A DNA stretch of 40,815 nucleotides from an uncultured Candidatus Kuenenia sp. (GCA_964578555.1 CAZODJ010000005.1:1-40815); one strand, 5' to 3'; counted from the stretch's first letter, positions 1-19,967 are shown. The notes: generated from the letters alone by a model not told the origin. Program-made: numbers and translations.

Positions 1-2
1 AC

Positions 3-470
3 ATGCGACGGATCAAGCACTACTGGCTGCCGGCGCGGATCGAGAAGGTCGATCATAAGGGGGGCAGCGAAGGCGTACTCACCGTGACGCTGCTGGCGGG
101 CTGCGATCCAGCGCTCTACGAGGCCTTCTTCGACAACGGCGGCGTGCCGGGCCGGATGAGCACGGGTGTGAACGTCGCATCTGCGGAGCCGACGCTCCGC
201 ACCTGGTGGCAGAATCATGATCTCGCCTGGGGATCGGTCGTGAAGCGGCGGACGAGCGAAAATCCGCCCCCCGGCAGCAGCGGCATCGAACTCGACATCT
301 CCACGCCGGTGTTGCTGGAGGGATTTCGGCCGGGGCGGTTTGTCCGGATCGGCTCGCAGACGGGCGGCTGGCCGAGAAGCAAGCCGCCACCGGAATGGCG
401 AATCAGGTCGATCGAAGAGCGGGAACGGGCTCTCTACGGTCCTGCGACCAATCAAGCTGCGAAACCATGA
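3..470 (+). CDS. Hypothetical protein, probably only the C-terminal part (5' end likely outside the window); first visible gene of the DUF1552 operon
   Basis: ORF with GC3-rich codons, followed by GGAGG and the DUF1552 start. Its last 46 codons recur at 7354-7494 with mostly synonymous changes, which supports real coding status. Confidence 0.7.
   Translation: MRRIKHYWLPARIEKVDHKGGSEGVLTVTLLAGCDPALYEAFFDNGGVPGRMSTGVNVASAEPTLRTWWQNHDLAWGSVVKRRTSENPPPGSSGIELDISTPVLLEGFRPGRFVRIGSQTGGWPRSKPPPEWRIRSIEERERALYGPATNQAAKP
329..470 (+). repeat. Left copy of a 142-bp imperfect direct repeat (3' end of ORF 3..470)
   Basis: Aligns without gaps to 7353-7494. The first 33 nt (gccggggcggtttgtccggatcggctcgcagac) are identical; 21 mismatches overall by hand count. 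Confidence 0.95.
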
Positions 471-508
471 ATCACAGACCGCGACCGCGATGAGTCGGAG
501 GTAATCCA

Positions 509-1915
509 ATGTTGCTGACCCGACGTTCACTGCTTGAATGCCTGTCGGCGACCGCCGTCGCGCCCTACCTCGCTCCGCTCGTCGCCCGAGCCGAGGCGGA
601 GGCGCGGGGCGGCAGGCCGCAGCGGTTCGTCTTCTTCATCGAGGGCAACGGCGTGCCGGCCACACACCTCCAGCCCGTCGGCATCGACCGCGTGGAGGTG
701 AAGCATCCCGCCCAAAATTCTGGCTCCGCGCTCGGAGCCACGGGCGGGATGAACGGCGCCACGGCGTTGATCGACCGGCCGTTGTCGGCCCCGGGCGTGA
801 GCCTGCCCGAGCCGCTCGCTCCGCTCGCACCGCATCTCAGGCGGGTGACGATCCTGCAGGGACTCTCCGGACGCGTATGCGGCGGAGGTCACGGCAACGG
901 CTTTGGCACGCTTGGCTGCTATCCGGCCAATGCCGGCGCCAAAGACATCACGATCGACGCAGCCCTCTCCCGCACGGCGCCGGCCATCCACCAGCACGTC
1001 GCCCTCGGCGTGAAGGACAATCCCGGATCGGCCGCGCCGCCGATCTTTACCAGTTGTTCGGCCTCGGGGCCGAACACGAAGGTTCCGCACTACCAGGATC
1101 CGGCGCTGGCCTACGACATGCTGTTCGGCCGGATCATGGCGGGCAATACCGCGGCCGCCCTCGGGTCGCAGGCGATGCTCCTCGACTTCATCGCCGGCGA
1201 CCTGGCCGCGCTGCAGCGACACCTGCCGCTGCCCGAGGCCGAGAAGATCGAACGGTATGCCGATGCGTTTGCCGCGATCAAGCAGCGCCGGGCCCGGCTC
1301 GGCGACATCGATCCGGGGCGGATCCCCCCGCGGCGCGGCGAGCTCTACGGGAGCGACCTTGAAACCAAGCGGCTCGAGGCCCACGTGGAAGTGGCGGCGA
1401 CGGCCCTCCTCATCGGCCTCACCAACACCGTCACGATCTGCTCCGGGGCGGGCAGCTACCCGACCTGGAAGGGGCTGGGCATCACGATCGACAACCATGC
1501 CATCGGCCACAACCAGGTGGCGGGCGCGGCCGAGATGATGGTCAAGATCCGGCAATACAACATGGGCCTCATCGCCAGCCTCGTCGCCCAACTGGAGGCG
1601 GTGCCGGAGGGGGATGGCACCGTGATGGACAACACGCTGATCGTCTACCTCAGCGACAGCGCGGAACTCCACCATTCGAAGTGCTATGAGTGGCCGATGG
1701 TGCTCGTCGGCAACCTCGGCGGGCGGCTTGCGGCGGGCGATCGGTTTCTCAACGTGCCCGGGTATGCGATGCCGGGGCATGTCACCGTGGCCCAGTTCTT
1801 CACCGCGCTGCTGCATGCCTCTGGTGCGCCGGTCAATCACTTTGGCATGATGGATCGCCTGCTCCAGCAGCAGGGGCTCGATCAAAAGCAGCCCTTCACG
1901 GAGATCCTGGCATGA
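509..1915 (+). CDS. DUF1552 (HXXSHH-type) family protein with Tat signal
   Basis: TRRSLL twin-arginine motif; RFVFFIEGNG; LEAVPEGDGTVMDNTLIVYLSD; HHSKCYEWPMVLVG; SD GGAGG upstream. Confidence 0.9.
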   Translation: MLLTRRSLLECLSATAVAPYLAPLVARAEAEARGGRPQRFVFFIEGNGVPATHLQPVGIDRVEVKHPAQNSGSALGATGGMNGATALIDRPLSAPGVSLPEPLAPLAPHLRRVTILQGLSGRVCGGGHGNGFGTLGCYPANAGAKDITIDAALSRTAPAIHQHVALGVKDNPGSAAPPIFTSCSASGPNTKVPHYQDPALAYDMLFGRIMAGNTAAALGSQAMLLDFIAGDLAALQRHLPLPEAEKIERYADAFAAIKQRRARLGDIDPGRIPPRRGELYGSDLETKRLEAHVEVAATALLIGLTNTVTICSGAGSYPTWKGLGITIDNHAIGHNQVAGAAEMMVKIRQYNMGLIASLVAQLEAVPEGDGTVMDNTLIVYLSDSAELHHSKCYEWPMVLVGNLGGRLAAGDRFLNVPGYAMPGHVTVAQFFTALLHASGAPVNHFGMMDRLLQQQGLDQKQPFTEILA

Positions 1916-3552
1916 GCCGCCCTGCCGCCGTGCTGGCGATGCTGGTCATGGCGGTCTGGGTGACCCCGCCGGCCGTCGCCGAATATCGGCATGCGCTCGT
2001 GATCGGCAACGCGGCCTATACCAAGGCACCACTCGCGAGCCCACCTCACGACGTGCGGCTGGTCGGCGACGCGCTCGAACGGAGGGGATTTACGGTCACG
2101 CGGGCCACAGATCTCGACGCCCCGTCGCTCGAACAGACGATCATCCGCTTCGCCCGCACGATCCCGACGCAGGGCACGGCACTCGTCTGGTACTCCGGGC
2201 ATGCCCTGCCGCACGGCACGATCGGGAAGCCCGACGCCGACACGCTCCTGCTGGCGATCGACGACAACCCATGGAAGACATCGCTGCGGGCCCTGCTCAA
2301 CTATTTCGTGGCCGAACACCGGCCGCCCGAGCACACTCCCACGAGTGGGGCGGGCCGCACCATCTTTATCCTCGACGCCTGCCATCAGCGACCGGGGCAA
2401 AGGCCCGATGGCCCGCGGGGGCTGATCCCGCCGATGGGCCTTCCTGCCGAGTCGCTCGTGATCTATTCGGCCCCCTTCGGCGAGCTCACGGAAGCGACTC
2501 CGGGCGAAAGCCCCGCCAGACCGTCGCCGCTGGCGGAGCGGTTTGCCGCCGCCCTCGACTCGGGGCGGCCGCTCGACGATGTGCTCGAAACGCTCGCCCC
2601 TACGAAGGTGTCGACGCTGCCCGCGGGAGCGCTGTTGCCACTGCAGCAGCCAGCCTCGCGGCCGGTCGCGGCGGCCGAGGCATTCCAGCCCGGCCGAGCG
2701 GCCGGCGATGAGTGGGTGAATCCCTGGGGGATGGTCTTCTGCTGGTGCCCCCCCGGCCGGATCGCGGTGGGCAGTCCGGACGACGAGCCCGGTCGCGACG
2801 ACGACGAGACTCGTGTGGAGACCGAATTCCCTGCCGGCTTCTGGGTTGGCAAATACGAGATTACCCGTCGGGAACTGTTTATGCTCCGCGGTGGCGCCTA
2901 TCTCTCCACGGGGGATCACAAACTCCAGCCGCTCAACCGCTGCGAAGAAAAAGTCTCAGCCGACATGCTTGCCCGGCTCAACGCGACGGCTCCTGACGGC
3001 TGGAGGTATGACCTGCCGACGGAGGCTGAGTGGGAGTATGCGGCCCGCGCGGGCACGCTCACGGCGTACTCGTTCGGCGCCGACCCGTCCGACCTCGTGC
3101 GGCACGGCAACTTTGCCGACCGCACGCTCCGCGAGAGCCTTTCGTTCGGCGAGTTCGCCAAGTCGTATCCTGCGAAGAGCAAAGAGCCCACCTATTTCTC
3201 CGACCGGCAGACCGGTCTCTTCACCTATGCCCACGCGGAGTGGAGCGACGGCGTGGCGGAGATGGCGGTCGTCGGCAGTTACCTCCCCAACCCCTGGGGG
3301 CTGCACGACGTGCATGGCAACGTGGCCGAGTGCACGCGCACGCTCTATGACGCCATCCGGCCACCTCCGGAAAAGGCCGACGAGACGCATGTCTGGGGCC
3401 GCGTCTGCAAGGGGGGCAGTTGGCTGAGCCTGCCGGCGTCGTGCCGCTCGGCGTTTCGAGGCTGGACGAAGATCGCCGAGAACGCGATCGGCATGCGGTT
3501 CGTGCTCCGGCCGGTCGGGCCGGACGAGGCCGTCGCGGAGGCAGGCAGATGA
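1912..3552 (+). CDS. Exported caspase-like (peptidase C14) + FGE-sulfatase/SUMF1-like fusion protein
   Basis: Start moved to ATG 1912 (ATGA overlap with DUF1552 stop). Signal peptide; ALVIGNAAY, WYSGH, ILDAC (C14); LPTEAEWEYAARAG, PNPWGLHDVHGNVAE, KGGSW (FGE-like). Confidence 0.88.
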   Translation: MSRPAAVLAMLVMAVWVTPPAVAEYRHALVIGNAAYTKAPLASPPHDVRLVGDALERRGFTVTRATDLDAPSLEQTIIRFARTIPTQGTALVWYSGHALPHGTIGKPDADTLLLAIDDNPWKTSLRALLNYFVAEHRPPEHTPTSGAGRTIFILDACHQRPGQRPDGPRGLIPPMGLPAESLVIYSAPFGELTEATPGESPARPSPLAERFAAALDSGRPLDDVLETLAPTKVSTLPAGALLPLQQPASRPVAAAEAFQPGRAAGDEWVNPWGMVFCWCPPGRIAVGSPDDEPGRDDDETRVETEFPAGFWVGKYEITRRELFMLRGGAYLSTGDHKLQPLNRCEEKVSADMLARLNATAPDGWRYDLPTEAEWEYAARAGTLTAYSFGADPSDLVRHGNFADRTLRESLSFGEFAKSYPAKSKEPTYFSDRQTGLFTYAHAEWSDGVAEMAVVGSYLPNPWGLHDVHGNVAECTRTLYDAIRPPPEKADETHVWGRVCKGGSWLSLPASCRSAFRGWTKIAENAIGMRFVLRPVGPDEAVAEAGR

Positions 3553-5618
3553 CAGCGTCTGCGATCTCCATGATTTCCGCGCTCTGGGCCGCTGCGACGC
3601 GGGGCACCGAGGCAGTATTTCGATTCGCAGCGCCGGCCGCGGCGCGGGCGATCCTCCTGATCATGATGGGGGCCGCCGTTTCGCCCGGACCTGCCCGCGG
3701 CGAGGGGGGCTTTCTGCCGGGGCCGATCCTTGCCCGCTCGTGCGGCGAATGCCATGCCGACGGTGCGGAGGAAGGGGGCGTGTCGCTCGCCGGTGTGACC
3801 GGCTTTGCGGACCTTCCGGCCGACATGTGGGGCCGGCTCCATGAGCAGGTGCAGCTGGGCCTGATGCCGCCCGAGGATGCCACGACGCCGCTCACAGCCG
3901 CCGAGCGGGAGCAGCTCATCGAGTGGATCGCCGGTTCGCTGCGGGGGGCGGGCGTGCATGTCGAGAACAAGCTCGACTGGCCGAACTACGGCAACTATGT
4001 GCCGCATGAGCCCCTGTTCGCCGGCCCGGCCGATCCAGCACCGGCCACGCTCATCCGCGTCTGGCGGCGGCGGCCGGAGGTGTATGCCGCCCGGAATTCC
4101 GGGGGCTTGCAGCCCTTTTCATTGCTCCCCGGCCAGCAGATCTCCGACTACGCCGCGATCTATCTCGTCGATGAGCCTGCCGCCGAGATCGTGCTCGAAA
4201 ATGCCCAGCGGCTCGCCGAGGCCTGGACGAGCTTCGACCGTCGCGATGGCAAACGCGTGCCTGGAAAACAGTCGCTGTTTTTTGCCCCGTCGCTCATCGA
4301 CGAGACCGCGACCGTCTCGGCCGAGGAATTCGCCAAGGCCCTCAATGAGGCCTTTCGCCGATCACTCGATCGTGATGCCACGCCCGACGAGCAGGAGCGG
4401 CTCCGCGGGCTGTATGACCGCGTGTCTGCGGTCCACGGGCGGATGGCGGCGGCGCGGGCGGTAGTTGCCGCGCCGCTGCTGATGCCGGAGGCCGTGTTTC
4501 GCCTCGAGCTTGGGGCCGGCCCGCTCGACGAGCATGGCCGTCGCCGGCTCACCAAGACCGAGATCATCGAGGCCCTGCGGCAGACGCTGGCCGGCGGTGA
4601 TCGATCGCCCGAGCCGCTCGCGCGTGCCCGTGCCGACGTTACCCAAGAACTTGCCGACCGCGATGCCGTGGCGGGGCTGGTGCAGCAGGTGCTTGCCGAG
4701 GGCTGGCCCCAGCCGCAGGTGCTGCGGTTCTTCGATGAATATTTTGGCTATCGCAAGGCGCAGGACGTGTTCAAGGAGGTGCCGGTGGGCGTGGCGTTTG
4801 CGGCCCCGGCCCTCGTCATCGAAACGGAGCGATTGATTCGCGAAATCGTGGCGGCCGACAGGGACGTGCTCCGGCGGCTGCTCACGACCGACGAGGCCTG
4901 GCTGCGGTCGCCCTGGCGAAGTCATGAGGGGCCGCCGACGCACACCATCTATAATCTCCCCGCCGACTTCAAATGGCGGGGGGAGATCGGAAAGGTCAAC
5001 GGGCCCTACCGGCTCGCGGCAGACGAACGGGCGGGAGTGCTCACGCAGCCGGCATGGCTGGTGGCCCACTCGGGCAACTTCGACAACGATCCGGTGCGGC
5101 GGGGCAAGTGGATCCTGGAACACCTCCTCGGCGGCACCGTGCCCGACGTGCCGGTGACGGTGTGCGCCGTGGTGCCGGAAGACCCGGCCAAGACGCTCCG
5201 CGAGCGATTCGCCGTGGTCACCGACCAGGCCTCCTGCTGGAACTGCCATCGGCAGATGAACCAGCTCGGCATGCCGTTCGAGGTCTACGATCATTTCGGC
5301 CGCCACCGGCTTCGGGAACTCGGGGAGCCGGTCGATTCCAGCGGAGCCGTGGTGGGGATCGACGACGCCGAGGTGGCTGGGTCCGTGGCCGGCCCGCTCG
5401 AGCTGATCCGGCGGCTGGCCGAGTCGAAGCGGGCCCGGCAGGTGTTCGTTCGGTATGCGTTCCGCTACTTTCTGGGCCGCAACGAGACGCTGCGAGACGC
5501 GCTCACACTGCGGGAGGCCGACGCCGCGTTCGTCGCCTCGGGCGGCAGCATGCGGGCACTCGTCACGGCGCTGCTCTCTTCGGATTCAGCTCTCTACCGG
5601 ACGGCCGAGACGCGGTAG
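3549..5618 (+). CDS. Planctomycete cytochrome c / DUF1588-DUF1585 (DUF1592-cluster) protein
   Basis: ATGA overlap start at 3549; CGECH...MPP; RAGVLTQPAWLVAHS; DPVRRGKWI; CWNCH; FVRYAFRYFLGRNE. Confidence 0.88.
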   Translation: MTASAISMISALWAAATRGTEAVFRFAAPAAARAILLIMMGAAVSPGPARGEGGFLPGPILARSCGECHADGAEEGGVSLAGVTGFADLPADMWGRLHEQVQLGLMPPEDATTPLTAAEREQLIEWIAGSLRGAGVHVENKLDWPNYGNYVPHEPLFAGPADPAPATLIRVWRRRPEVYAARNSGGLQPFSLLPGQQISDYAAIYLVDEPAAEIVLENAQRLAEAWTSFDRRDGKRVPGKQSLFFAPSLIDETATVSAEEFAKALNEAFRRSLDRDATPDEQERLRGLYDRVSAVHGRMAAARAVVAAPLLMPEAVFRLELGAGPLDEHGRRRLTKTEIIEALRQTLAGGDRSPEPLARARADVTQELADRDAVAGLVQQVLAEGWPQPQVLRFFDEYFGYRKAQDVFKEVPVGVAFAAPALVIETERLIREIVAADRDVLRRLLTTDEAWLRSPWRSHEGPPTHTIYNLPADFKWRGEIGKVNGPYRLAADERAGVLTQPAWLVAHSGNFDNDPVRRGKWILEHLLGGTVPDVPVTVCAVVPEDPAKTLRERFAVVTDQASCWNCHRQMNQLGMPFEVYDHFGRHRLRELGEPVDSSGAVVGIDDAEVAGSVAGPLELIRRLAESKRARQVFVRYAFRYFLGRNETLRDALTLREADAAFVASGGSMRALVTALLSSDSALYRTAETR

Positions 5619-5727
5619 GCTGTCCGAGAACCGTGCGGCGAGATTCGGCCTCGACGCGGCCGCCTCGGGCCTGACATCCTCAGACATCGTAATCACGCCC
5701 GACGGGAGCGGCCTGCACCGCACCGGG

Positions 5728-5797
5728 CCCCGGGTGGTAGCCCGGGGACGGTCTGGTGGGCCCCCGCATTGATCTTCCGGTTTCCACCGGGGGGCTA
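5728..5797. repeat. Degenerate REP-like hairpin doublet
   Basis: ccccggg-tggtag-cccgggg (5728-5747) and ccggt-ttcc-accgg (5777-5790) followed by ggggcta; the two units are roughly inverted copies of each other. Confidence 0.45.
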
Positions 5798-5855
5798 TTT
5801 GGGGAAACCCGCTCCCGTTCTCGGCGACCGTCTGCCACCGTTCTCAACCGGCCTT

Positions 5856-5884
5856 TTGCATTCGCGTTGATTATCGTCTATGAT
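5856..5884 (+). promoter_or_regulatory. Sigma70-type promoter of the abiE operon
   Basis: TTGCAT-17 bp-TATGAT in an AT-rich patch. Confidence 0.65.
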
Positions 5885-5908
5885 ATTCAACGCATATGAA
5901 AAAAGAAC

Positions 5909-6550
5909 ATGAAATATGACCAGCTTGTTGATGTCGTGAGCGGTTTGGTCTGCTTTGACCTGCCTCTTTTGGTCCAGGCGTTTCCGGATCGCCGGCCGGC
6001 AATCCTGTTGCAGCTTTCGCGCTGGGTGACGCGAGGGAAAGTGATTCCCCTCCGCCGCGGCGTCTACACGCTCGCGGATCGCGGCCGCAAGACGCCGCTC
6101 GATCCGGCGCTGCTCGCCCAGCATCTGTGCCGGCCGTCTTATCTGAGCGGACTGTGGGCCTTGGGCTTCCACGACATGATCCCCGAACGCGTCGTGGTTC
6201 ACACCAGCGTCACGACGCGGCAGCCGGCGCGGTTCGACAATGCCTGCGGGGCGTTCGAGTACCGGCACATCAAGCAGCCATGTTTTTTTGGATACGAGCA
6301 GGTGGTCTACGGCAGCGGCACGATCCTGGTGGCCCGGCCGGAAAAGGCCCTGCTCGATCATTGGCATCTTGCGGCCGGCGAGTGGACCGACGACCGCCTC
6401 GCCGAAATGCGGTATCAAAACCTGGCCGCCGTGGATTCCCGACGCCTACAGGAATACGCCGCCCGATTCAAACGGCCCCGACTCGATCGGGCAGTCCGCC
6501 GCTGGCTGCGGCTCGCGCTGGAGTGCGATGCTGGAGAACTGATCCTATGA
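5909..6550 (+). CDS. abiEi: Type IV TA antitoxin / transcriptional regulator, AbiEi-like
   Basis: QLSRWVTRGKVIPLRRGVY, PSYLS..WAL.FHDMIPE, ARPEKALLD; coupled to the AbiEii gene. Confidence 0.85.
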   Translation: MKYDQLVDVVSGLVCFDLPLLVQAFPDRRPAILLQLSRWVTRGKVIPLRRGVYTLADRGRKTPLDPALLAQHLCRPSYLSGLWALGFHDMIPERVVVHTSVTTRQPARFDNACGAFEYRHIKQPCFFGYEQVVYGSGTILVARPEKALLDHWHLAAGEWTDDRLAEMRYQNLAAVDSRRLQEYAARFKRPRLDRAVRRWLRLALECDAGELIL

Positions 6551-7347
6551 AGGAGCAGGCCCTCGCCCTGGCCCGGGCCGCCGCGAATCGCGGACAGGCG
6601 CTGAACACCTTGCGGGAATACCTGCAGGCGCTCGTGCTGCGATCGTTCCATGAGGCGGAGGCATTCCGGTGCGTCGCTTTCGTGGGCGGCACGGCCCTGC
6701 GGTTTCTGCACGGCCTGCCCCGGTTTTCCGAAGACCTTGATTTTTCACTCGTGTCTCCGGATGGCTACGCGGGGCAAGCCTGGATGGCCAAGGTGAAGCG
6801 GGATCTCGCCCTGGCTGGATTTACGCCGGAGGTGACCTGGAACGACCGCAAGACCGTTCACACCGGGTGGGTTCGCCTCCGCGGCCTCCTGCATGATGCG
6901 GGTCTATCTCCCCTGGCAGACGAGAAGCTCGCGATCAAGGTGGAGGTGGACACCCGCCCTCCTGAAGGCGGCCGTTGCGACCGCCAGATCGTGACTCGCC
7001 ATCTTTCGTTTCTGCTCCAGTATTACGATCCGCCCTCGTTGATGGCCGGGAAACTGCATGCCCTGTTGACCCGCCGTTATGCCAAAGGCCGCGATTGGTA
7101 CGACCTCGTTTGGTACCTGTCGCAGCGGCCGCCCCTGACGCCAAATTTGACGCTGCTGCAAAACGCGTTGGATCAGACGCAGGGAGCCGGTCGGACCGAT
7201 GCCCGGCGCTGGCGGGAGGAGGTGAGGGATCGGCTGGCGGCGATGGACATCAAGGCTCTTCTCGACGACGTCGGCCCGTTCCTGGAACGCCCCCAAGACG
7301 CGACGATGATCACTCGGGACAATCTGCTGAGTCTTCTGCACAGTTGA
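6547..7347 (+). CDS. abiEii: Type IV TA toxin, AbiEii nucleotidyltransferase family
   Basis: ATGA overlap start at 6547; FVGGTALRFLHGLPRFSEDLDFS; KLHALLTR; KGRDWYDL. Confidence 0.9.
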   Translation: MKEQALALARAAANRGQALNTLREYLQALVLRSFHEAEAFRCVAFVGGTALRFLHGLPRFSEDLDFSLVSPDGYAGQAWMAKVKRDLALAGFTPEVTWNDRKTVHTGWVRLRGLLHDAGLSPLADEKLAIKVEVDTRPPEGGRCDRQIVTRHLSFLLQYYDPPSLMAGKLHALLTRRYAKGRDWYDLVWYLSQRPPLTPNLTLLQNALDQTQGAGRTDARRWREEVRDRLAAMDIKALLDDVGPFLERPQDATMITRDNLLSLLHS

Positions 7348-7352
7348 CCGAA

Positions 7353-7494
7353 GCCGGGGCGGTTTGTCCGGATCGGCTCGCAGACAGGCGGCTGGCTGAG
7401 AGTCAAGCCGCCACCGGAGTGGCGAATCAGGTCGATCAAGGAACGCGAGCGGGGTCTCTACGGCCCAGCCACTGAGCAGGCCGCGAAGCCGTGA
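7353..7494 (+). pseudogene. Start-less duplicate of the 3' end of ORF 3..470 (right copy of the direct repeat)
   Basis: Reads PGRFVRIGSQTGGWLRVKPPPEWRIRSIKERERGLYGPATEQAAKP*; 41/46 aa identical to the left copy with the same stop position; no start codon between it and the abiEii stop. Confidence 0.9.
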
Positions 7495-7533
7495 ACTGTC
7501 CGCCCCGGTCGCGAGCCGAGGGCATGAACACCT

Positions 7534-7562
7534 TTGACCCAGGTGTGTCATGTCTATAGCAT
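7534..7562 (+). promoter_or_regulatory. Sigma70-type, probably leaderless promoter of vapBC
   Basis: TTGACC-17 bp-TAGCAT, then 6 nt to ATG 7569; repeated CATG units overlap the -10 (candidate operator). Confidence 0.7.
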
Positions 7563-7568
7563 GGATAC

Positions 7569-7844
7569 ATGCAAAAGATTCAGATCCTTTTTCCGGATCC
7601 TGTGATGGAACGGCTCCGGGCTATTGCCCGACAGCAGGACCGCCCCGTCAGCGAACTGGTGCGGCGGGCCGTTGACCGCCTCCTCGAGCAGGTCCCGGCG
7701 CTACCGCCGAAGCGGGCCGCACGATTTCCCACGTTTCATGGCGGAGGTGTGCTCGTGGATGCCGATCGACTGAAGGACGTGCTCCACGGTTTGGATGACG
7801 AGGTGCGGCCAACAGGCCGCCTTGACTCGCGGCCGACTCGCTGA
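7569..7844 (+). CDS. Ribbon-helix-helix (CopG-like) antitoxin
   Basis: MQKIQILFPDPVMERLRAIARQQDRPVSELVRRAVD is an RHH pattern; directly upstream of a PIN toxin. Confidence 0.85.
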   Translation: MQKIQILFPDPVMERLRAIARQQDRPVSELVRRAVDRLLEQVPALPPKRAARFPTFHGGGVLVDADRLKDVLHGLDDEVRPTGRLDSRPTR

Positions 7845-7845
7845 C

Positions 7846-8283
7846 ATGAAGAGCCTCGACACCAATATTCTGCTGTATGCCGCCGACAAGGATTGTCGCG
7901 AGCATGAAGCTGCGATCAGGCTCATGAACGAAGCCCTGCGTTCGCCGGCCGAGTGGATGCTGGCCGACCAGGTTCTCTTCGAGATGTACGCAGGCCTGCG
8001 GCATCCGGGTGTCTTCGCCAAGCCTTTGTCAGCGGCGGAGGCCGCCCGAACGGTGGCCTTTCTCCGCGACGAGTCGGGGTTTTCATTCTGTTGCTACGAA
8101 CTGCGGTCATGGCCGACGATCCACGCCAGCCTGGCCACCCCGGAGTTTCCGCGACGGCGAACGTACGACCTCGTCCTCGCCGTAACCTTGCGAAGGAATG
8201 GAGTCACCGAGTTTTACACGCGGAACGTCATGGACTTCCGGACCGCCGGATTCACGGCAGTCGTGAATCCGATCGACGATTGA
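7846..8283 (+). CDS. vapC: PIN-domain VapC-family toxin
   Basis: Start MKSLDTNILLYA (ATG 7846); conserved acidic PIN residues; YDLVLAVTL, FYTRNVMDF, VVNP. Confidence 0.9.
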   Translation: MKSLDTNILLYAADKDCREHEAAIRLMNEALRSPAEWMLADQVLFEMYAGLRHPGVFAKPLSAAEAARTVAFLRDESGFSFCCYELRSWPTIHASLATPEFPRRRTYDLVLAVTLRRNGVTEFYTRNVMDFRTAGFTAVVNPIDD

Positions 8284-8357
8284 TCTCGCGCCGTCGATGA
8301 CGGGCTTGCTCCGGCCAGATGCGGTGGCTGCAGCCGCGATGGTGTTTGCACGAGGCC

Positions 8358-11300
8358 TTATTTCTTCACGACGAGCTCGTCGATGTCGATGAAGCCCGGT
8401 GACCAGTCGCCCCAGCCGGGGCCGATCACGAGGCCGCCCCCGTCGGTGACGTCGGTCTCGCCGCTGAAGAGTTCGACATCGTCGATGGCGACCGTGTGCT
8501 GTGTGCCCACGACCTTGAGCGAGAGCGTGTGCCACTCGGTGTCGAGCGGCACGAGCCGGCCGGTCTCGGTGAGCCGATCGATCGAGACCGTGGTGAACGG
8601 CACGATCTCTCCCTCCCGCCGCGTCGCATAGGTGAGCGCGAGCGCCGGCTTGCCATCCTTGCCGTTTTGAATGCCCAGTTGCAGGGTCTGGCCGTTCTGC
8701 TTGGGCCAGTTGCCGACCTGACGATGCAGCATTTGCAAAACGCCGTAGAACTGCGGATACGGCGGCTTCGAGGTCAGCGGCGGCAGCCGGAAGCGGAGGC
8801 TGAGCCCGTAATCACCGGCCGTTGTGCCGCTCACCACATTTTGCGATGGATGGCCTGGCGTGACGCGCAGCACGTGATTGGCCGAGTCTTCTGGATCGGT
8901 AACGATCTTCGGCGCCGCCTCCCCCTGGCTCTTCCAGCCCGGTGGGAGCCCGAGTTCAAAGTCACCCCGCAGCGTGACGCCCTCGCCCCACGCCAGCGGC
9001 ACAAGCCGGCTGCGGTCGCCGAGCAGGACAAGCCGCGTGCCGTAGTCGGCCGCGAACAAGAGCGGCTCATCGGCCGCCGCCAGCTGTCGCGTGAACAGAT
9101 CGAGCATCGCCGTCCCCGGTGGCAGATCGAGCGTGGTTGAGCAGGCCTCGGCGGAATAACTCTGCAGCAAAACAAGCACCGGCGCGCCCGGCCCCGCCGC
9201 GGCTTGCTCCAGTGCGATCCAGGCGATCTGTGGATTGGCCACCCGCAGAAATGGCTTTTCGTCCCAGTAGTTGTGAACCCGTGTCTCGGGCGTGCCATAA
9301 CCAAACCGGGCAAAGGCGGCTTCCATTGTGCGGATCGCGTCATGGTCGTAGCCGCCCGCCCCGCCGCGGATCTCGTGGACAAGGTTCATCGCCTTGTCGG
9401 AGAGGCGGCGATGATACGCGACATCGGCTGGCGGCTTGTCGGTGGAGCCATAGCCGACCCCCAGCCCGCCGAAGGCATCGTCGCTCCGCAGCGAATGCCG
9501 TGAGTGGGAAATCAGCCCCGCCATCCGGCCCATTTCCATCGCCCGTAGGTAATCGCGGGGATAGGGGAGCGGCTGGCCGGGATTGTCTTTGCTTGGGCCG
9601 CCCAAGACAAGAAACCCTCGCTTCTCGATCCGCTGCTGCTCCTCGGCCGACCATGTCGGAATCGTGTCGGGCAGCCACTGCCCGGGTGACTCGACACCGA
9701 GCGTCGCGTCCCACCAGGTCGTGAACGGGATCACCTGACAGTTTGTGACGTGGCCGACGATGTGCAGCCGCATCGGCCGCGGGTCGGCCGGGTCGTAGGG
9801 ATCGATCGGCGTGAGGCCCTTGGCCATCAATTCGCGGCTTCGCTTCCAGACCCGGCGGAAATACTCGCGATGCCCCCAGAGGCTGCTCTGCCAGTCGAGA
9901 CCTGGCCGCTCCTGTCGCAGGGTGAAACGGTTGCGATCGGTGTGCGGCATCGTGTTGTCGTAATAGATGCCGACGCCCCGCTTCATCCATTCGTCCGCGT
10001 AATAGACCGCGAAGTCTCGCCAGCTCTCCTGATTGGCGGTGCGGGCCTCGGGCCCCCACCCACGGCTATCGGGATAGGGCTTCCCGTCGTAGTTGAACTT
10101 GCGAAACCGGCACCAGCTGCCGAGATCCCATTCGTCCATGTACTCGACGCTTTCCGGATGAGTGCCGTTGGTCTGAAACTCCTCGTAGTAGACGGTGATG
10201 CCGTTGCGGTGAACCCGTGAGCGGGAGGCAAAGCCAAGCACACTCTTGAGCCAGCTCTCATGGCCGAGCACCGTCAGTTCAGGAAACTGCCGCTGCGTGT
10301 CGAGCTGCTCGAAAAACGCCTTGAATTCTCCCTGCCAGACATTCTTGTTCACCTCCGGATCGCGAGCCGACACGATCTTCTCCACGATCCGCCAGTCTTT
10401 CGGGTCGGGGTAGTGGGAGGAACAGTTGTAGCCCCCCCACACCACCACCTGCATGCCGCCGCCACCGGGCACCGCATAGCCTCGCCAGCCGTCCATCATC
10501 GGCTTGGTGGGGCTGCCCTGCAGGCCGAATACAAACGTCCGCGCCGCGTCGAGCATCACCGGCTGCTGGATCAACTCGACATGCAGCACGACCTTGCCCG
10601 GTTCGATCCGCAGCCGCTGGATGCCGCGCTGGCCGTCGGTTTCGTAGCCGGCGGTATGGTCACCAAACCACGCGATCCCGCGCTCCTCCGCCCCGAGCCA
10701 GACATACGGAGCGAAATTCCAAAACTCATTGCCCCAGTGCATCAGCTGCCGGCCGTCCCACACCTCGTATTCCGCGGGCGCTTTCCCGACAAAGGGCTCG
10801 ACCTCGAATCGGGCCGGACGCCACGGCTGGTTGATCCAGGTGATTCTGCCGCCGCGGGGCACCTGGCCGGCGTAGTTGTGCCGCATGGAGTTCATGCCAA
10901 CCATGTGACAGAGCGGCGACTCCGATTCCTTCACGGCCATGCGCAGCCAGGCCCGCTTGATCGCCACGCCTTTTCCATCGCTCGCCGTCGGCCCCAGGTT
11001 CATCTCCACCTTCGCGCAGCCGTCCTCTTCGACCGTGATGCGGCTGCGGAGGTCGAGGCCGTCGCCCCAGGCCGCGGTCTGGAAGACGGCCGTGTCGGGA
11101 TGGGTCGCGCGGCCACTCACGCCCCCGCTGGGTCCCGCCGGTTTCCAGGCGACCTGACGGTTGTCAGCCAGTTCGACTACCAACTGCATCGGTTCGGCCA
11201 GCAGCTCGCGGCCCTTGGCGACCATGCTTGCGAAGAGCCCCTGCGGGTTGAGCGTGTACGTGCGCTCGACGACCGAGACGGTGGGGCCGGTGACCTCGAC

Positions 11301-11921
11301 CGGCGTGAACGGGGCGAAGACCTCGTGGGTCTTCCCGATATCGTTGTGCTCAAACTCGAAAAAGCTGCGGGTGAGAAGCCGGTTGGACCCGATCACGCGG
11401 CCCCCGCCGAGGTCATATTCCACGCGGTAGGTGCCCCTGGCCAGCGTCGGCAGAGTAAACAGGCCGTAGCCCCGGCCGGCGGCGTCGAGCGGGATGGCCT
11501 GCGTGAACACGGGCTCGCCACCGGCGGCTGGCCGCACCCGCAGCGTCACCATCGCCGGCGGCTCCTTCGGAAGATCGGGGGGCAGCGTCTTGACCAGATC
11601 TTCGGCGTCAGCCTGCTTCATGTTTGGATGGTCGTGGATCGTGTCCGGGAGGGGCTTGATGATCTCGGCGTAGTCGAAGAGCAGTTCGATCTCGTTGGTG
11701 TATGGGTAATAGGCATAGGAGCCGCGGGCGAGAATCCTCTGCAGTTCGTCAAACCGCCGACTGTCATGGACCTGAGGGTTCCAGCCCATCTTTTCTCGCC
11801 AACGAATATCGTCTTCGCTGAGGGCTGCGGGCTCGGCCGCTTCAACGGCGGTGCAGCATCCCGCTCGCAGGAGGAGGAGCACGACCGGAATCCATCGACG
11901 GAACGGGAGGGGTCCGTGCAT
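8358..11921 (-). CDS. Large exported glycoside-hydrolase-like protein (DUF6067-like core) with C-terminal beta-sandwich lectin-like domain
   Basis: Signal peptide; WLGAEERGIAWFGD, FVFGLQGSPTKP and GIYYD motifs, which I associate with DUF6067-type proteins; C-terminal EWHTLSLKVVGTQHTVAIDD strand pattern. Family call is by recall. Confidence 0.6.
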   Translation of the reverse strand: MHGPLPFRRWIPVVLLLLRAGCCTAVEAAEPAALSEDDIRWREKMGWNPQVHDSRRFDELQRILARGSYAYYPYTNEIELLFDYAEIIKPLPDTIHDHPNMKQADAEDLVKTLPPDLPKEPPAMVTLRVRPAAGGEPVFTQAIPLDAAGRGYGLFTLPTLARGTYRVEYDLGGGRVIGSNRLLTRSFFEFEHNDIGKTHEVFAPFTPVEVTGPTVSVVERTYTLNPQGLFASMVAKGRELLAEPMQLVVELADNRQVAWKPAGPSGGVSGRATHPDTAVFQTAAWGDGLDLRSRITVEEDGCAKVEMNLGPTASDGKGVAIKRAWLRMAVKESESPLCHMVGMNSMRHNYAGQVPRGGRITWINQPWRPARFEVEPFVGKAPAEYEVWDGRQLMHWGNEFWNFAPYVWLGAEERGIAWFGDHTAGYETDGQRGIQRLRIEPGKVVLHVELIQQPVMLDAARTFVFGLQGSPTKPMMDGWRGYAVPGGGGMQVVVWGGYNCSSHYPDPKDWRIVEKIVSARDPEVNKNVWQGEFKAFFEQLDTQRQFPELTVLGHESWLKSVLGFASRSRVHRNGITVYYEEFQTNGTHPESVEYMDEWDLGSWCRFRKFNYDGKPYPDSRGWGPEARTANQESWRDFAVYYADEWMKRGVGIYYDNTMPHTDRNRFTLRQERPGLDWQSSLWGHREYFRRVWKRSRELMAKGLTPIDPYDPADPRPMRLHIVGHVTNCQVIPFTTWWDATLGVESPGQWLPDTIPTWSAEEQQRIEKRGFLVLGGPSKDNPGQPLPYPRDYLRAMEMGRMAGLISHSRHSLRSDDAFGGLGVGYGSTDKPPADVAYHRRLSDKAMNLVHEIRGGAGGYDHDAIRTMEAAFARFGYGTPETRVHNYWDEKPFLRVANPQIAWIALEQAAAGPGAPVLVLLQSYSAEACSTTLDLPPGTAMLDLFTRQLAAADEPLLFAADYGTRLVLLGDRSRLVPLAWGEGVTLRGDFELGLPPGWKSQGEAAPKIVTDPEDSANHVLRVTPGHPSQNVVSGTTAGDYGLSLRFRLPPLTSKPPYPQFYGVLQMLHRQVGNWPKQNGQTLQLGIQNGKDGKPALALTYATRREGEIVPFTTVSIDRLTETGRLVPLDTEWHTLSLKVVGTQHTVAIDDVELFSGETDVTDGGGLVIGPGWGDWSPGFIDIDELVVKK

Positions 11922-11957
11922 GAGATCTCCTCGAATGCCGCGTAGAGATCGCGCAGC

Positions 11958-13625
11958 TTATTGAAACTCAGCCCGGCCCCAGGTGGCCGCGCTCTCAAAC
12001 GGATAGATGGCCGGCGGCTCGCCAGGGTTGCGAACCTCGATGATCTGGTCACGCCAGAGGCGGCCTGTTTCATCGCTGAAGTGCAGCTCCCAGCAGGTTG
12101 CCAGCTGGTCGCCCGGCTGCGGCGGGTCATCGGCCACGCCGAGCGTCTCCCACGAGATCCGATACTCGAGCACATACCCACGGCCATCCGCTGCCGGGAC
12201 GAAGCGGCCCGTAAATCCGTCCGTGATCTCGGCGGCATCGGTGCCGAGGGCGGAGTTGAGGGCCAGTCGATCGGTGCCGGACGGAGCGTGGTGCCAGAGG
12301 AAGAGCGTGAGTAGCCGCGGATTGGTCGCCTTCACCTCTTCAGCCAGCGGCGGCTGAATGTGGCGGCAGTTGTAGTAGGCGGGGGCCTTGCCCTCGGCCG
12401 GCCAGCCGAGGCCGCGATCGAGCGAGAGAAAGAGCTGCAGGGCACCGCCGTGCCAGAGCGTTTCGAGACGCGTTTCAGGATCGACCGCATTGCGAAGCGG
12501 GTGCGGATCGCCGACGCGGGCTGCGACATAGAGCCCCGCTGCGTCATAGAGCATCCAGCCTTCGAGCCACTCGGGCCCTGACCCATCGGCTGATCGGGCG
12601 GCCCGAAACGCCGGCTCGGCCGGCCATTCATCGAGTTGGCCATCGATCACGACCGGTTCGTTGGTCCGTGGGACCGACATCGCCTCGACCTGCGGCCGAC
12701 CGAACGAGCGATAGAAGCCCTCCGTGCCCGGCGTGGCCCGTCGCGGCATGCCTGGCGACGCGGGAAGCCGCCGCAGAAAGCGGCCCGCGTCGAAGGCGAG
12801 CGTCTCGTCGCTGGGGGCATCGCCAGGCACGATCCGCACGGCCGTCTCGGCATCGAGACGGAGTGGAAATCGGGCGATGTCACGGCTCACGAAGGCGTGG
12901 CCGGTGTAGTTCTGGACTTCGGTCACGAGTGCCTCCGTGACAGCGATGCCGCATTCACCACGGTCAATCGTGACCGTGGCAGCCGGCGTTTCCACGACGC
13001 ACTGTCGGCCACTGTCCGGCTGCCGCACCACCATGCTGCCCCGATGGAGAAAGGCTGAATGGTCAGTCAGCAGGTCGAGTTCGGCCGGCCCTTCGACCAC
13101 GAGCACGCCGCCACTGCGCAGCGTGATCTCGATGCCGCCGGAATCGAGTGTGAGCCGCTCCCGGGCGAGCAGTCGGCCGACTGCGACTGACTCGGCGTTG
13201 CCGCCAGTAGGCAGCATCGCCAGCCGCGTGTTGCTGATCTGGCCGAGGGCGGCGGCCTGCTGCATGCTGGCAATAGCCTGCCAGGCGACGGTGCCGCCAA
13301 GGCCGCCAAGGAGTGCGATGACCATCGTCAGTGCGGCTGCCAACCGCCAACGCCGCCACTGTCTTCCGTCACCTCCCGGCGCATGCGCGAGGAGATCGAC
13401 CACGTCGCCAACACCGGTGCCGGCATGGGCGTCGGCCAGATCGGCCTCCAGGAGCATCGCCTCGATGTACCACCCGCGGGCTTCAGGATCGGTTGCCACA
13501 GCATCGGCGATCTGCTGACGGCTCTCCGCCGCATCGGCCGCGTCACCTTCATCGAGTGCGCGGCTCACCGTTTCGAGAAAGTGATTCTTTCGTTCGGCGA
13601 AGTCGTGCGAGTGATCGATGGTCAT
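11958..13625 (-). CDS. FecR-like anti-sigma factor with C-terminal CBM9-like sugar-binding domain
   Basis: N-terminal anti-sigma helix (DPEARGWYIEAMLLEADL), one TM helix, FecR region (VVEGPAEL, VETPAATV), then VVIDGQLDEWP, YDAAGLYVAARVGD, GYVLEYRISWETLG. Confidence 0.75.
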   Translation of the reverse strand: MTIDHSHDFAERKNHFLETVSRALDEGDAADAAESRQQIADAVATDPEARGWYIEAMLLEADLADAHAGTGVGDVVDLLAHAPGGDGRQWRRWRLAAALTMVIALLGGLGGTVAWQAIASMQQAAALGQISNTRLAMLPTGGNAESVAVGRLLARERLTLDSGGIEITLRSGGVLVVEGPAELDLLTDHSAFLHRGSMVVRQPDSGRQCVVETPAATVTIDRGECGIAVTEALVTEVQNYTGHAFVSRDIARFPLRLDAETAVRIVPGDAPSDETLAFDAGRFLRRLPASPGMPRRATPGTEGFYRSFGRPQVEAMSVPRTNEPVVIDGQLDEWPAEPAFRAARSADGSGPEWLEGWMLYDAAGLYVAARVGDPHPLRNAVDPETRLETLWHGGALQLFLSLDRGLGWPAEGKAPAYYNCRHIQPPLAEEVKATNPRLLTLFLWHHAPSGTDRLALNSALGTDAAEITDGFTGRFVPAADGRGYVLEYRISWETLGVADDPPQPGDQLATCWELHFSDETGRLWRDQIIEVRNPGEPPAIYPFESAATWGRAEFQ

Positions 13626-14298: not shown

Positions 14299-15054
14299 AT
14301 GAACACGTTTCAAATCTACGAAGAGTTTCGAGATTCGCTCGGGGAACCGGCGGCGCGGGCGCTCGCCCATCGGCTGGGGGCGATGTTCGATGAGCTGCGT
14401 GACGCGGTTACGAAGGAAGATTTCCGCAGCCTGCGGGAATCGATTGACGCCGACGTCTCCCGCCTCGACTCTGCCCTTGTGGAACTGGCCCAGGCACAGA
14501 AGCAGACAGAGCAGCGACTCGATGAATTGGCCCAAGCCCAGAAGCAGACAGAGCAGCGACTCGATGAACTTGCCCAGGCCCAGCGGGAAACCCAGCACGA
14601 GCTCAAGCTCCTGATCAAAGTGGTGAAGCGGCAGGCGGATCGGCTCGACAAGACGGTCGGCCGAGCAATGGAGATCGACTTCCGGGACCGGATGCCAAAC
14701 CTCCTGTGGCGGTTCCTCAAGCAGGCGCGGCCGGTCACCCTGCCGGAAATTGCCGATCAACTGGAGGCTGCGCTCGAGGAGTCGGAGCTGGAAGACATCG
14801 CCCGGGCCGACGCCTTTGCCGCGGGGTTGATCGATGGCAAGCCGGCCTTTGTCGTGGCTGAGATCTCGTTTACGGCCGTTTCCAACGATGTCCGTCGGGC
14901 GGCCCGCTGGGCGGCGCTCTTCAGGAAAGCCGGGCTGCGGGCGATTGCTCTCGTGGCCTGCGACGGCATTTCGGATCGCACGCTGCGGCTGGCGGAGAAG
15001 AAAAACGTGCGGGTATGCCTGGGGGGCCGCCTGCTGGCCGACCCTGCGGCATGA
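14299..15054 (+). CDS. Coiled-coil repeat protein with putative C-terminal PD-(D/E)XK-like fold (paralog 1)
   Basis: Start MNTFQIYEEF matches the paralog at 17599; VTKEDF neck; ELAQAQKQTEQRLD repeats; RAD...VVAEIS...DVRRA. Confidence 0.8.
   Translation: MNTFQIYEEFRDSLGEPAARALAHRLGAMFDELRDAVTKEDFRSLRESIDADVSRLDSALVELAQAQKQTEQRLDELAQAQKQTEQRLDELAQAQRETQHELKLLIKVVKRQADRLDKTVGRAMEIDFRDRMPNLLWRFLKQARPVTLPEIADQLEAALEESELEDIARADAFAAGLIDGKPAFVVAEISFTAVSNDVRRAARWAALFRKAGLRAIALVACDGISDRTLRLAEKKNVRVCLGGRLLADPAA
14482..14607 (+). repeat. Intragenic 42-bp tandem repeat, about 3 units
   Basis: gaa(c/t)tggccca(g/a)gc(a/c)cagaagcagacagagcagcgactcgat twice, plus a diverged third unit. Confidence 0.9.
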
Positions 15055-17598: not shown

Positions 17599-18498
17599 GT
17601 GAACACCTATCGGATCTACGAAGACTTTAAGGCGACGCTTGGCGATGCGGCCGCCAAATCCCTCGCGCAGACGCTCGGCGCGATGTTCGAGGAACTCCGG
17701 GACACGGTCACCAAGGAGGATTTCCGGATTCTCCGCGAGTCGATCGACGCAAACGTCTCCCGGCTCGACGGAGCGATTACCAGGCTAGCCGAGGCCCAGG
17801 CCCGGACCGAAGTAAAGGTCGGTGAGCTTGCTGACGGCCAAGCTCAACTCGCTGCTGCCCAATCCCGCACGGAAGTGCAGATGAAGGAGCTTGCCCAGGC
17901 CCAGGCCCGCACGGAAGTGCGGATGGACGAACTTGCCCAGGCTCAATCCCGCACGGAAGTGCAGATGAAGGAGCTCGCCCAGGCTCAATCCCGCACGGAA
18001 GTGCGGATGAATGAGCTTGCCCAGGCCCAGGCCCGCACTGAGCAGCAGGTCGGGAGACTGGCCGAGGTGACGCAGCGGCTTTCGATCCGTACCGACGAGG
18101 TTGTCGGCCGCACGTTCGAGCTTCAGTTTCGTGACCGTCTCACTTCCTATCTGGGTCGGTTTCTGCGGCGGGGCAAAGTGGTCGGGAATGACGTGCTGCT
18201 CGATGCGATCGAGCCCCACGTGACGACGGACGAAATCGATGATTTCCTCCGGGCCGATATCGTTGCCAAGGGGCTTGTGGACGGCGTGGAGACGTATGTC
18301 GTCGTCGAGGTTTCTTCGACCGCCGATATGAAAGACATCGTCCGCGCTGAACGCCGGGCCACGATTCTCCGCAAGGCGGGGCTTGCTGCCATTCCGCTTG
18401 TGGCATGCGGGGCCATCCCGCCGGAGTCAATTCAGTTTGCGCACCGATCTGGCGTGCGGGTGTGGTGCGATGGATCACTCGTGGAAGCCGCAGCCTGA
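17599..18498 (+). CDS. Coiled-coil repeat protein with putative C-terminal PD-(D/E)XK-like fold (paralog 2)
   Basis: LGAMFEELRDTVTKEDFRILRESIDA nearly identical to paralog 1; ELAQAQ(A/S)RTEV(Q/R)M repeats; RADIV...VVVEVS...DIVRAERRA. Confidence 0.82.
   Translation: MNTYRIYEDFKATLGDAAAKSLAQTLGAMFEELRDTVTKEDFRILRESIDANVSRLDGAITRLAEAQARTEVKVGELADGQAQLAAAQSRTEVQMKELAQAQARTEVRMDELAQAQSRTEVQMKELAQAQSRTEVRMNELAQAQARTEQQVGRLAEVTQRLSIRTDEVVGRTFELQFRDRLTSYLGRFLRRGKVVGNDVLLDAIEPHVTTDEIDDFLRADIVAKGLVDGVETYVVVEVSSTADMKDIVRAERRATILRKAGLAAIPLVACGAIPPESIQFAHRSGVRVWCDGSLVEAAA
17782..18054 (+). repeat. Intragenic 42-bp tandem repeat, about 6.5 units
   Basis: Units start at 17887, 17929, 17971 and 18013 (gagcttgcccaggc...cgcacggaagtgc), with diverged units and one extra heptad upstream. 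Confidence 0.9.
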
Positions 18499-19912: not shown

Positions 19913-19967
19913 GATGCTGCCCTCTGAGTTTTTGGTGTGCGGATCCCCCGGGTGTCACCGGGCTTTG

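Follow-up and report, generated by a model that had tools for sequence, protein, structure and literature searches.

What has placed two versions of the same gene end 7 kb apart, with an operon and a toxin-antitoxin pair between them? The question is raised by the left part of a contig of 40,815 nucleotides (nt) from an uncultured Candidatus Kuenenia sp. (GCA_964578555.1 CAZODJ010000005.1:1-40815), whose genome assembly comprises 1.87 Mb and is 51% complete. The window analysed here is this whole contig, so its leftmost gene, gene X, is cut at base 1. We call the copy of this gene in the window X1 (distinct from the metagenome run X1, below) and the right copy of its 3' end the relic. X1 consists of a 3' part of 155 codons (3..470, +), with 81-86% protein identity to full-length relatives. 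According to the repeat comparison, the left tail copy (329..470, +) is the working end of X and the right tail copy (7353..7494, +) a displaced, start-less relic of it. Between the two lie a trio of genes for a DUF1552 protein, a caspase/FGE-sulfatase fusion and a cytochrome protein, followed by abiEi and abiEii; a second, vapBC-type module stands beyond the relic. The answer to which we give an even chance is that homologous, not site-specific, recombination brought a unit of 7,024 base pairs (bp) into the 3' end of X, and that its arrival displaced the lineage's own tail.

The alignment of 329-471 with 7353-7495 runs ungapped over 143 nt at 85% identity (blastn E = 5e-41), the copies being 7,024 nt apart. 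Positions 329..361 (+) are identical to 7353-7385 over 33 nt and encode part of the motif PGRFVRIGSQT; they belong to a wider stretch, 329-415, that is conserved across the family. Over 329-470 the copies differ at 21 nt, all of them in the last 109 nt, which gives 13 synonymous and 5 non-synonymous codon changes. The codon at the boundary also differs (CGG/AAG), and the TGA stop falls at the same aligned position in both copies. The right copy has no in-frame ATG, GTG or TTG, and it starts 5 nt past the abiEii stop, in the frame of abiEii. The ungapped repeat with its shared stop, the identical 33 nt, the codon counts and the missing start had been described in a first-pass annotation of the window, and our recomputation agrees with it. 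A side observation is that the abiEii TGA is in frame with the relic (7345-7494), and read-through of this one codon would add a 48-residue X tail to AbiEii.

The differences between the two tails are clustered, with 5 of 85 nt in 330-414 and 16 of 56 in 415-470 (Fisher p = 4e-4); the corresponding synonymous changes are 2 in 29 codons and 11 in 18 (p = 1e-4). X1 and the relic are 93% identical in 329-415 and 71% identical in 416-467 (the last 52 nt), and 87% identical in protein. Comparison of X1 with the orthologues of L020, L022 and G067:C18 (G, C and L being our handles for genomes, contigs and loci) yields 79-84% for the gene body, 91% for 329-415 and 62-79% for the last 52 nt. Because the tail identities match these orthologue values, the relic is best regarded as an X allele about as far from X1 as the orthologues of other species. 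The synonymous excess (13 of 18 changed codons) has a binomial p of 0.006 against an expectation of 0.4, which is our own rough assumption, and each of the two tails shares states with different relatives. Both observations uphold the earlier view that the tails are diverged working alleles, and on these grounds a decayed target-site duplication was rejected. A transposon with target-site duplication does not fit the locus either: there is no transposase, and the repeat is 142 nt long and 15% diverged, with mostly synonymous changes.

The block was found to be integrase-less, as the first-pass annotation had it: a recombinase or transposase Pfam domain occurs in none of its 6 genes and in none of 50 further stop-to-stop open reading frames (ORFs) of at least 70 aa in 300-7600, and a profile scan of the window beyond the block gave no such domain either. 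As to a recombinase in trans, for which that annotation had suggested a search, the rest of the half-complete genome holds one Phage_integrase match, on contig C81. An Rfam scan of 1-12000 and a tRNA scan of the window gave no match, which argues against an attachment site in an RNA gene.

The evidence that the block has a history of its own comes from metagenome contigs (k=31) placed on the window at a likeness of at least 90%, from runs X1, X3, X4 and X5, which come from separate studies. All statements refer to the 32 longest of 466 pieces, and uncovered stretches (for example 399-605 in X3) were not used. For run X3, the differences from the window amount to 111 in 6,612 nt (1.7%) for the pieces inside 606-7422, and to 337 in 4,501 nt (7.5%) for those on 36-398 and 7393-11609. 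Run X4 shows 92 in 5,692 nt (1.6%) inside 456-6641 versus 130 in 1,681 nt (7.7%) on 8385-10095, and run X5 is uniform (block 2.0%, flanks 1.9%). The switch in X3 and X4 lies inside the tails, on the left between 398 and 456-606 and on the right at about 7353-7429. Two host backgrounds that are 5-9% apart beside the block therefore share a nearly identical block. Such a contrast is as predicted for a unit transferred through its tails, is hard to get from vertical descent of the relic, and supports the block as a unit with its own history.

The joints of the block recur in these runs. The joint between the X tail and the DUF1552 gene is bridged by contigs of runs X1 (392-6202), X4 (456-1652) and X5 (412-1113), and that between abiEii and the relic by contigs of runs X1 (6779-7382) and X3 (5875-7422); the cytochrome/abiE and relic/vapB joints are also bridged. 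Because contigs of four separate studies bridge the joints, the architecture is no peculiarity of a single assembly. In run X3, flank contigs have a depth of 19-23 and block contigs of 9-10, although contig depth is not copy number, and two contigs, one from the X body and one from abiEii, end at the equivalent repeat positions 398 and 7422. These depths and contig ends would fit block-free chromosomes or a circle, and we take them as a lead only, the k=31 graph being path-blind. Joints at 5231->7515 (run X1) and 1218->8124 (run X4) were left aside as unreliable, with 21-22 letters on the shorter side. The A at base 362 of the left copy in runs X1, X3 and X5, which is the state of the right copy, was not used either, as it may be plain polymorphism.

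A second instance of the layout was found in another genome of the family. Contig G070:C71 holds a full X; behind it come 2.4 kb that contain a single unrelated gene, for a secreted protein of 634 aa, and then an X-tail copy of 165-190 nt (95% and 91% identity) with the same stop; the repeat boundary lies about 25 codons upstream of that in the window. G067 has a single X at the orthologous locus, which shows 96.5% identity over 6.4 kb. There the end of the tail and roughly 35 nt beyond it agree with the right copy of G070, down to the state of a 6-nt indel. On this sequence evidence, the right-hand tail appears to be the native one, represented by G067. A hybrid X tail, followed by a BNR-repeat gene and then by the 634-aa gene, occurs in G069. 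The cargo gene is also present in another genus (G170) with 90.6% nt identity and without X, and the homology stops at precisely the point where G070's right tail copy begins. Because the layout recurs with other cargo and another boundary, the events are better described as homology-driven than as site-specific.

In the favoured reading, the unit would consist of an alternative X tail, a spacer of 38 nt, the DUF1552/caspase-FGE/cytochrome operon, a hairpin-bearing spacer and abiEi/abiEii. It would have been joined by RecA-type recombination in the family-conserved stretch of X (about 329-415), with no dedicated recombinase acting at a defined core. X would then read through into the tail of the unit, and the recipient's own tail would have been pushed 7 kb downstream, to lie as a dead relic beside vapBC. 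The right joint (abiEii stop, 5 nt, relic) would have to stem from an earlier illegitimate event; most likely the abiE module, being self-contained, inserted into an X copy of some ancestor. Once bracketed by two X tails, the block could loop out and re-insert, or be imported, through recombination between tails; any circular intermediate is inferred, and so is the direction, with an insertion preferred to a deletion.

The relatives of X provide the background against which this reading has to be judged. Full-length relatives have about 420-490 aa and a twin-arginine-like leader, and X, with about 430 aa, is an uncharacterised secreted protein of Pirellulales. The family has no Pfam or NCBIfam match, a protein atlas gave only unnamed clusters at 0.89, and a structure predicted from 8 sequences had a mean pLDDT of 56.5, which is not good enough for searching folds. 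Upstream of base 4 the X reading frame goes on in a contig of run X1, and neither the missing 5' part nor further tails were found on the other contigs of the 51%-complete genome. With a cut-off of E <= 1e-30, 9 of the family's 176 genomes have an X1-like gene. One genus, represented by 20 genomes, accounts for five of the nine, and the 11 other genomes that share the window's genus have none. Arrays with cytochrome and DUF1552 genes are the usual setting, two X matches lying within a few kb in G019:C77, G019:C12, G067:C18, G072:C223, G012:C1 and G057:C12, and in L020, L021 and L022 the X1-type gene is the last of the array. Downstream of X in L022 and G067:C18 there are variable toxin-antitoxin genes or a remnant, as after the relic in the window, and small defence-type modules seem to land at the end of the X array. 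In L022 (812-2354) these are a DUF433/DUF5615 (PIN-like) pair and a Uma2 nuclease, and in G067:C18 a PIN fragment (L026 1483-1602). The DNA downstream of the X orthologues of L020, L022, G067:C18 and G072 is unrelated to either downstream region of the window.

The trio, in turn, is a conserved three-gene unit at 8 other loci (L039-L045, L017) in 5 genera. At seven of the trio loci in relatives no X lies within the fetched range, and because the trio stands alone there, its joint with X is taken to be derived. In G032:C5 an orphan, decayed 3' fragment of X (L035 9671-9799) was found between genes for a short-chain dehydrogenase and a Ser/Thr kinase; X, cytochrome and DUF1552 genes are all missing from the DNA within about 9 kb of it. 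Targeted tblastn was used for these comparisons instead of whole-window tblastx against relatives, which returned only noise.

Several observations weigh against a homologous entry of the unit into X. An empty allele, with X directly before this vapBC/glycosidase-like flank, was what the first-pass annotation had proposed to look for among relatives, and none was found in 8 loci of 6 genomes (G019, G067 twice, G069 twice, G070, G072 and G174) and 5 metagenome loci. The joints that a circle or an empty site would produce (7352->362, 328->7386) are absent from the listed pieces, in which the k=31 contigs break at the repeat, so that this absence carries no weight. The displaced-tail layout was seen in 1 of 20 X loci of the genome-collection scan, and in G070 either an insertion or a deletion may have acted, since G067 and G069 would look the same after a deletion between the repeats. 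The contrast in divergence is taken from partly listed contigs of at least 90% likeness, and it compares the block with its adjoining flanks rather than the whole genomes of the two host backgrounds. The 33 identical nt do not testify to a crossover, as all of 329-415 is conserved in the subfamily; judged by its conservation, this stretch is a plausible site for homologous recombination, though not the scar of one. The earlier proposal of a 33-bp core as the recombination site was in fact not borne out, as no defined identical core is conserved among occupied sites: apart from the subfamily-wide conservation, the boundary in G070 is shifted, and in run X3 the relic is altered at 7364 and 7374 (both within the core, and including an F-to-C change in the conserved motif) and at 7392 (7 nt past it), so the core is not maintained. 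Nor were other copies of the 33-mer, which that annotation had thought worth a search, detected in the 1.87-Mb, 51%-complete genome, where the two copies of the window are the only ones with up to 4 mismatches allowed. The earlier interpretation as a whole is partly supported: its inserted unit, which rebuilt the gene and displaced the tail, gains from the divergence of the block in X3 and X4 and from the layout in G070, and loses from the missing empty allele.

The tandem-paralog alternative, which the first-pass annotation had also raised, is the leading competitor, though we hold it to be less likely than not. According to this explanation, the locus once held X, the operon and a second full X, of which the insertion of abiE and a deletion left only the last 142 nt, and no 7-kb unit moved. 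Tandem X arrays with cytochrome and DUF1552 genes do exist in relatives (XB-PSCyt-XA in G019:C77, and similarly in G067:C18 and G072:C223), and in G019:C12 and L021 a full-length X directly follows the orthologous trio, as a deletion predicts. A second full-length paralog in relatives was among the findings that the first-pass annotation had named as refuting its unit, and these two loci show it in part. This second full-length gene at the position of the relic is a distant paralog, however; the counterpart in G019 is 39% identical to X1, and 27 of its residues align with the relic at 48%, compared with 87% in protein between the relic and the tail of X1. It is also missing beside the trio elsewhere, as 7 of 9 other trio loci have no adjoining X. 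The abiE module is self-contained, with a promoter-like site of its own, and its homology to G019:C152, from about 5853 onward, ends at the abiEii stop, right at the relic; moreover, the orphan relic of G032 demonstrates that X genes get lost with 3' ends left behind. A 5' remnant of the second X is nevertheless absent between the cytochrome stop and abiE, where only chance-level tblastn matches were obtained (5619 to 5908). A resident paralog would also leave unexplained the approximately four-fold gap in divergence between block and flanks in X3 and X4, with its switch at the tails, as well as the G070/G067/G069 series. Deletion of a paralog and displacement of a tail may be successive stages of one history.

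A one-step illegitimate or one-sided event appears quite improbable to us. Foreign DNA would have been anchored in X and its far end joined illegitimately or by template switching, with about 140 nt duplicated and the copies later diverged or patched by conversion. Homology-facilitated illegitimate recombination has been proposed for how type VI secretion system (T6SS) effectors become displaced (PMC5361080). The right-hand boundaries of the window and of G070 differ, as illegitimate joints would, and in both the cargo ends just where the right copy begins. A fresh duplication, on the other hand, would begin identical, and the last 52 nt are 71% identical with mostly synonymous changes, the two copies sharing states with different relatives; the joint between abiEii and the relic also has no useful microhomology (1 nt). 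Most improbable of all is an assembly artefact, in which the repeat would have mis-joined the chromosome (X body, right-hand tail and vapBC) with a separate circular or tandem molecule of 7 kb. The contig does begin just 328 nt ahead of the repeat, in each of the four runs the k=31 contigs are interrupted within it, with none of those listed spanning from before 329 to beyond 416, and several X variants co-occur in run X1, where the summed depth is 99 at 1-400 versus about 17-29 over 401-12,000. Against this, the exact repeat of 33 nt is far below read length and the usual final k-mers, so that an assembler would resolve it; the tail/operon and abiEii/relic joints recur in runs of separate studies, and G070 has the same layout in another assembly.

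If a unit did enter X by homologous recombination, an operon and a defence module were moved between related lineages by host recombination and a conserved gene end, and the reading frame of X stayed intact through the transfer. The displacement model proposed for rhs, contact-dependent inhibition (CDI) and T6SS toxin tips would then extend to an ordinary secreted-protein gene with multi-gene cargo, although we make no claim that displacement cases outside toxin genes are unpublished. The locus would also be a concrete place to look for the proposed circular intermediate in existing metagenome reads. A bolder generalization, unlikely but worth stating, is that Pirellulales possess recombinase-less tail-swap cassettes, in which any DNA between two copies of the conserved X 3' segment can circularise, move between lineages 5-8% apart and re-enter X by a single RecA-dependent crossover. 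Each entry would give X a new tail and leave the old one behind, and losing the cassette would carry a penalty through its toxin-antitoxin passenger. C-terminal displacement would, in that event, not be peculiar to polymorphic toxins and would represent a general integrase-free movement of operons. If the paralog explanation holds instead, the structure is an ordinary gene relic next to an inserted toxin-antitoxin module.

Regarding the cargo, the DUF1552 (HXXSHH) gene (509..1915, +; Pfam E = 1.3e-32) starts 38 nt past the X stop. It is followed by the fusion of a caspase (Peptidase_C14) and an FGE-sulfatase domain (1990..3552, +), assigned by Pfam, with NCBIfam and PADLOC also recognizing the caspase; its start is uncertain, the longest ORF beginning at 1690. 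The planctomycete cytochrome protein (3420..5618, +; Pfam PSCyt3/PSD2, weak cytochrome c) probably starts near 3720, as orthologues align from residue 100 onward. The spacer of 290 nt between the operon and abiE contains a GC-rich hairpin element (5727..5805). Eight contigs of the relative G005 match it nine times in all, at 79-84%; G019:C152 has a similar motif upstream of its abiE and G067:C214 one downstream of its X, and the element looks like a dispersed intergenic repeat. A promoter-like site of the abiE module (5855..5884, +) lies where homology to the abiE of G019:C152 starts, and that copy, in another context, is 82% identical in nt from about 5855 to the abiEii stop. The antitoxin and transcriptional regulator gene abiEi (5909..6550, +) has a PADLOC AbiEi match of E = 4e-46 and a weak Pfam AbiEi_4 match; abiEii (6547..7347, +), for the nucleotidyltransferase toxin, matches Pfam AbiEii with E = 5e-27 and PADLOC with E = 8e-67, its start being approximate in a frame open from 6127.

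Beyond the relic, the vapBC-type module has a promoter-like site (7534..7562, +), at which homology to the vapBC of other genomes starts (7534-7549) and a run X5 contig has a loose end (7549), a ribbon-helix-helix antitoxin gene (7569..7844, +; Pfam RHH_1/RHH_5) and a PIN-domain toxin gene (7795..8283, +; Pfam PIN). Both toxin-antitoxin modules are self-contained. We regard abiE as a passenger, and a role for it in stabilising the block is conjecture. Run X1 contains forms with deletions of 305-307 nt inside abiEii (6855-7163), with 3-5 other letters at the joint, and of 282 nt at the 3' end of the PIN gene (8070-8353), in each case alongside intact forms. Because deleted and intact forms occur together in run X1, the toxin genes of both modules are deletion-polymorphic. 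X1 (81-86% protein identity), abiE (79-82%) and vapBC (75-84%) are far closer to other genomes of the family than the operon, which reaches only 45-62%; either these parts have different histories or the assignment of the contig to its bin deserves a second look. The G+C content of the trio (0.67-0.705) is slightly above that of abiE, vapBC and the flank (0.62-0.67), too weakly for an argument on origin.

The remainder of the window is a chromosomal neighbourhood typical of planctomycetes. A large glycosidase-like gene lies beyond the ribbon-helix-helix/PIN pair on the opposite strand. Tandem repeats of 42 nt at 14482-14607 and 17784-18067 (5-6 units, 62-93% alike) apparently encode 14-residue repeats rich in A, Q and E. 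Farther on there are a second cytochrome/DUF1552 pair (18566-22757, -), a gene for a DUF1549/DUF1553 protein (26905-30225, -) and one for a DUF1501 protein (39255-40658, +), with ECF sigma and FecR-like genes between them and no mobile-element genes.

Among known systems, the closest parallels are found in the C-terminal displacement of toxins. For rhs, homologous recombination of circular intermediates has been proposed (Jackson et al. 2009, PMC2935791), and displacement is also described for T6SS effector-immunity arrays (Kirchberger et al. 2017, PMC5361080). In this literature, for rhs, CDI and T6SS alike, an intact gene gains a new 3' end with downstream cargo, and the former 3' end lies silent downstream, together with a stretch of the conserved sequence that preceded it; there is no dedicated recombinase, and the route proposed is homology in the conserved part, through circles or one-sided homology. 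In contrast, the rhs tips described there are non-homologous toxin domains with cognate immunity genes in long arrays, whereas the tails of the window are homologous (87% in protein), X lacks a toxin domain and belongs to no recognised family, there is one relic, and the cargo is a 5-kb housekeeping-type operon with an AbiE pair. This pair resembles the AbiE type IV toxin-antitoxin and abortive infection system in its adjoining AbiEi and AbiEii genes, as suggested by strong profile matches. Another likeness is that to prophage e14 and phage 21 in icd of E. coli, for which the source (PMC13626634) describes an element in the 3' end of a gene that supplies a substitute tail and displaces the native one as icdC, the two tails differing mainly by synonymous and conservative changes; loss of e14 recreates a chimeric gene. 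However, e14 is a prophage with its own site-specific excision at a defined attachment site, and the block of the window encodes no recombinase, its identical stretch varying between strains and lying elsewhere in the second instance. A tandem family, finally, is found in the lpl cluster of S. aureus, for which Tsuru and Kobayashi 2008 (PMC2568036) describe a conserved segment within the ORF as the recombination site and the 3' part of an ORF across intergenic DNA as the evolving unit, and invoke circle formation and re-integration. The window differs from it in that its second copy is a stump of 142 nt rather than a full paralog, and in that unrelated cargo lies between the copies.

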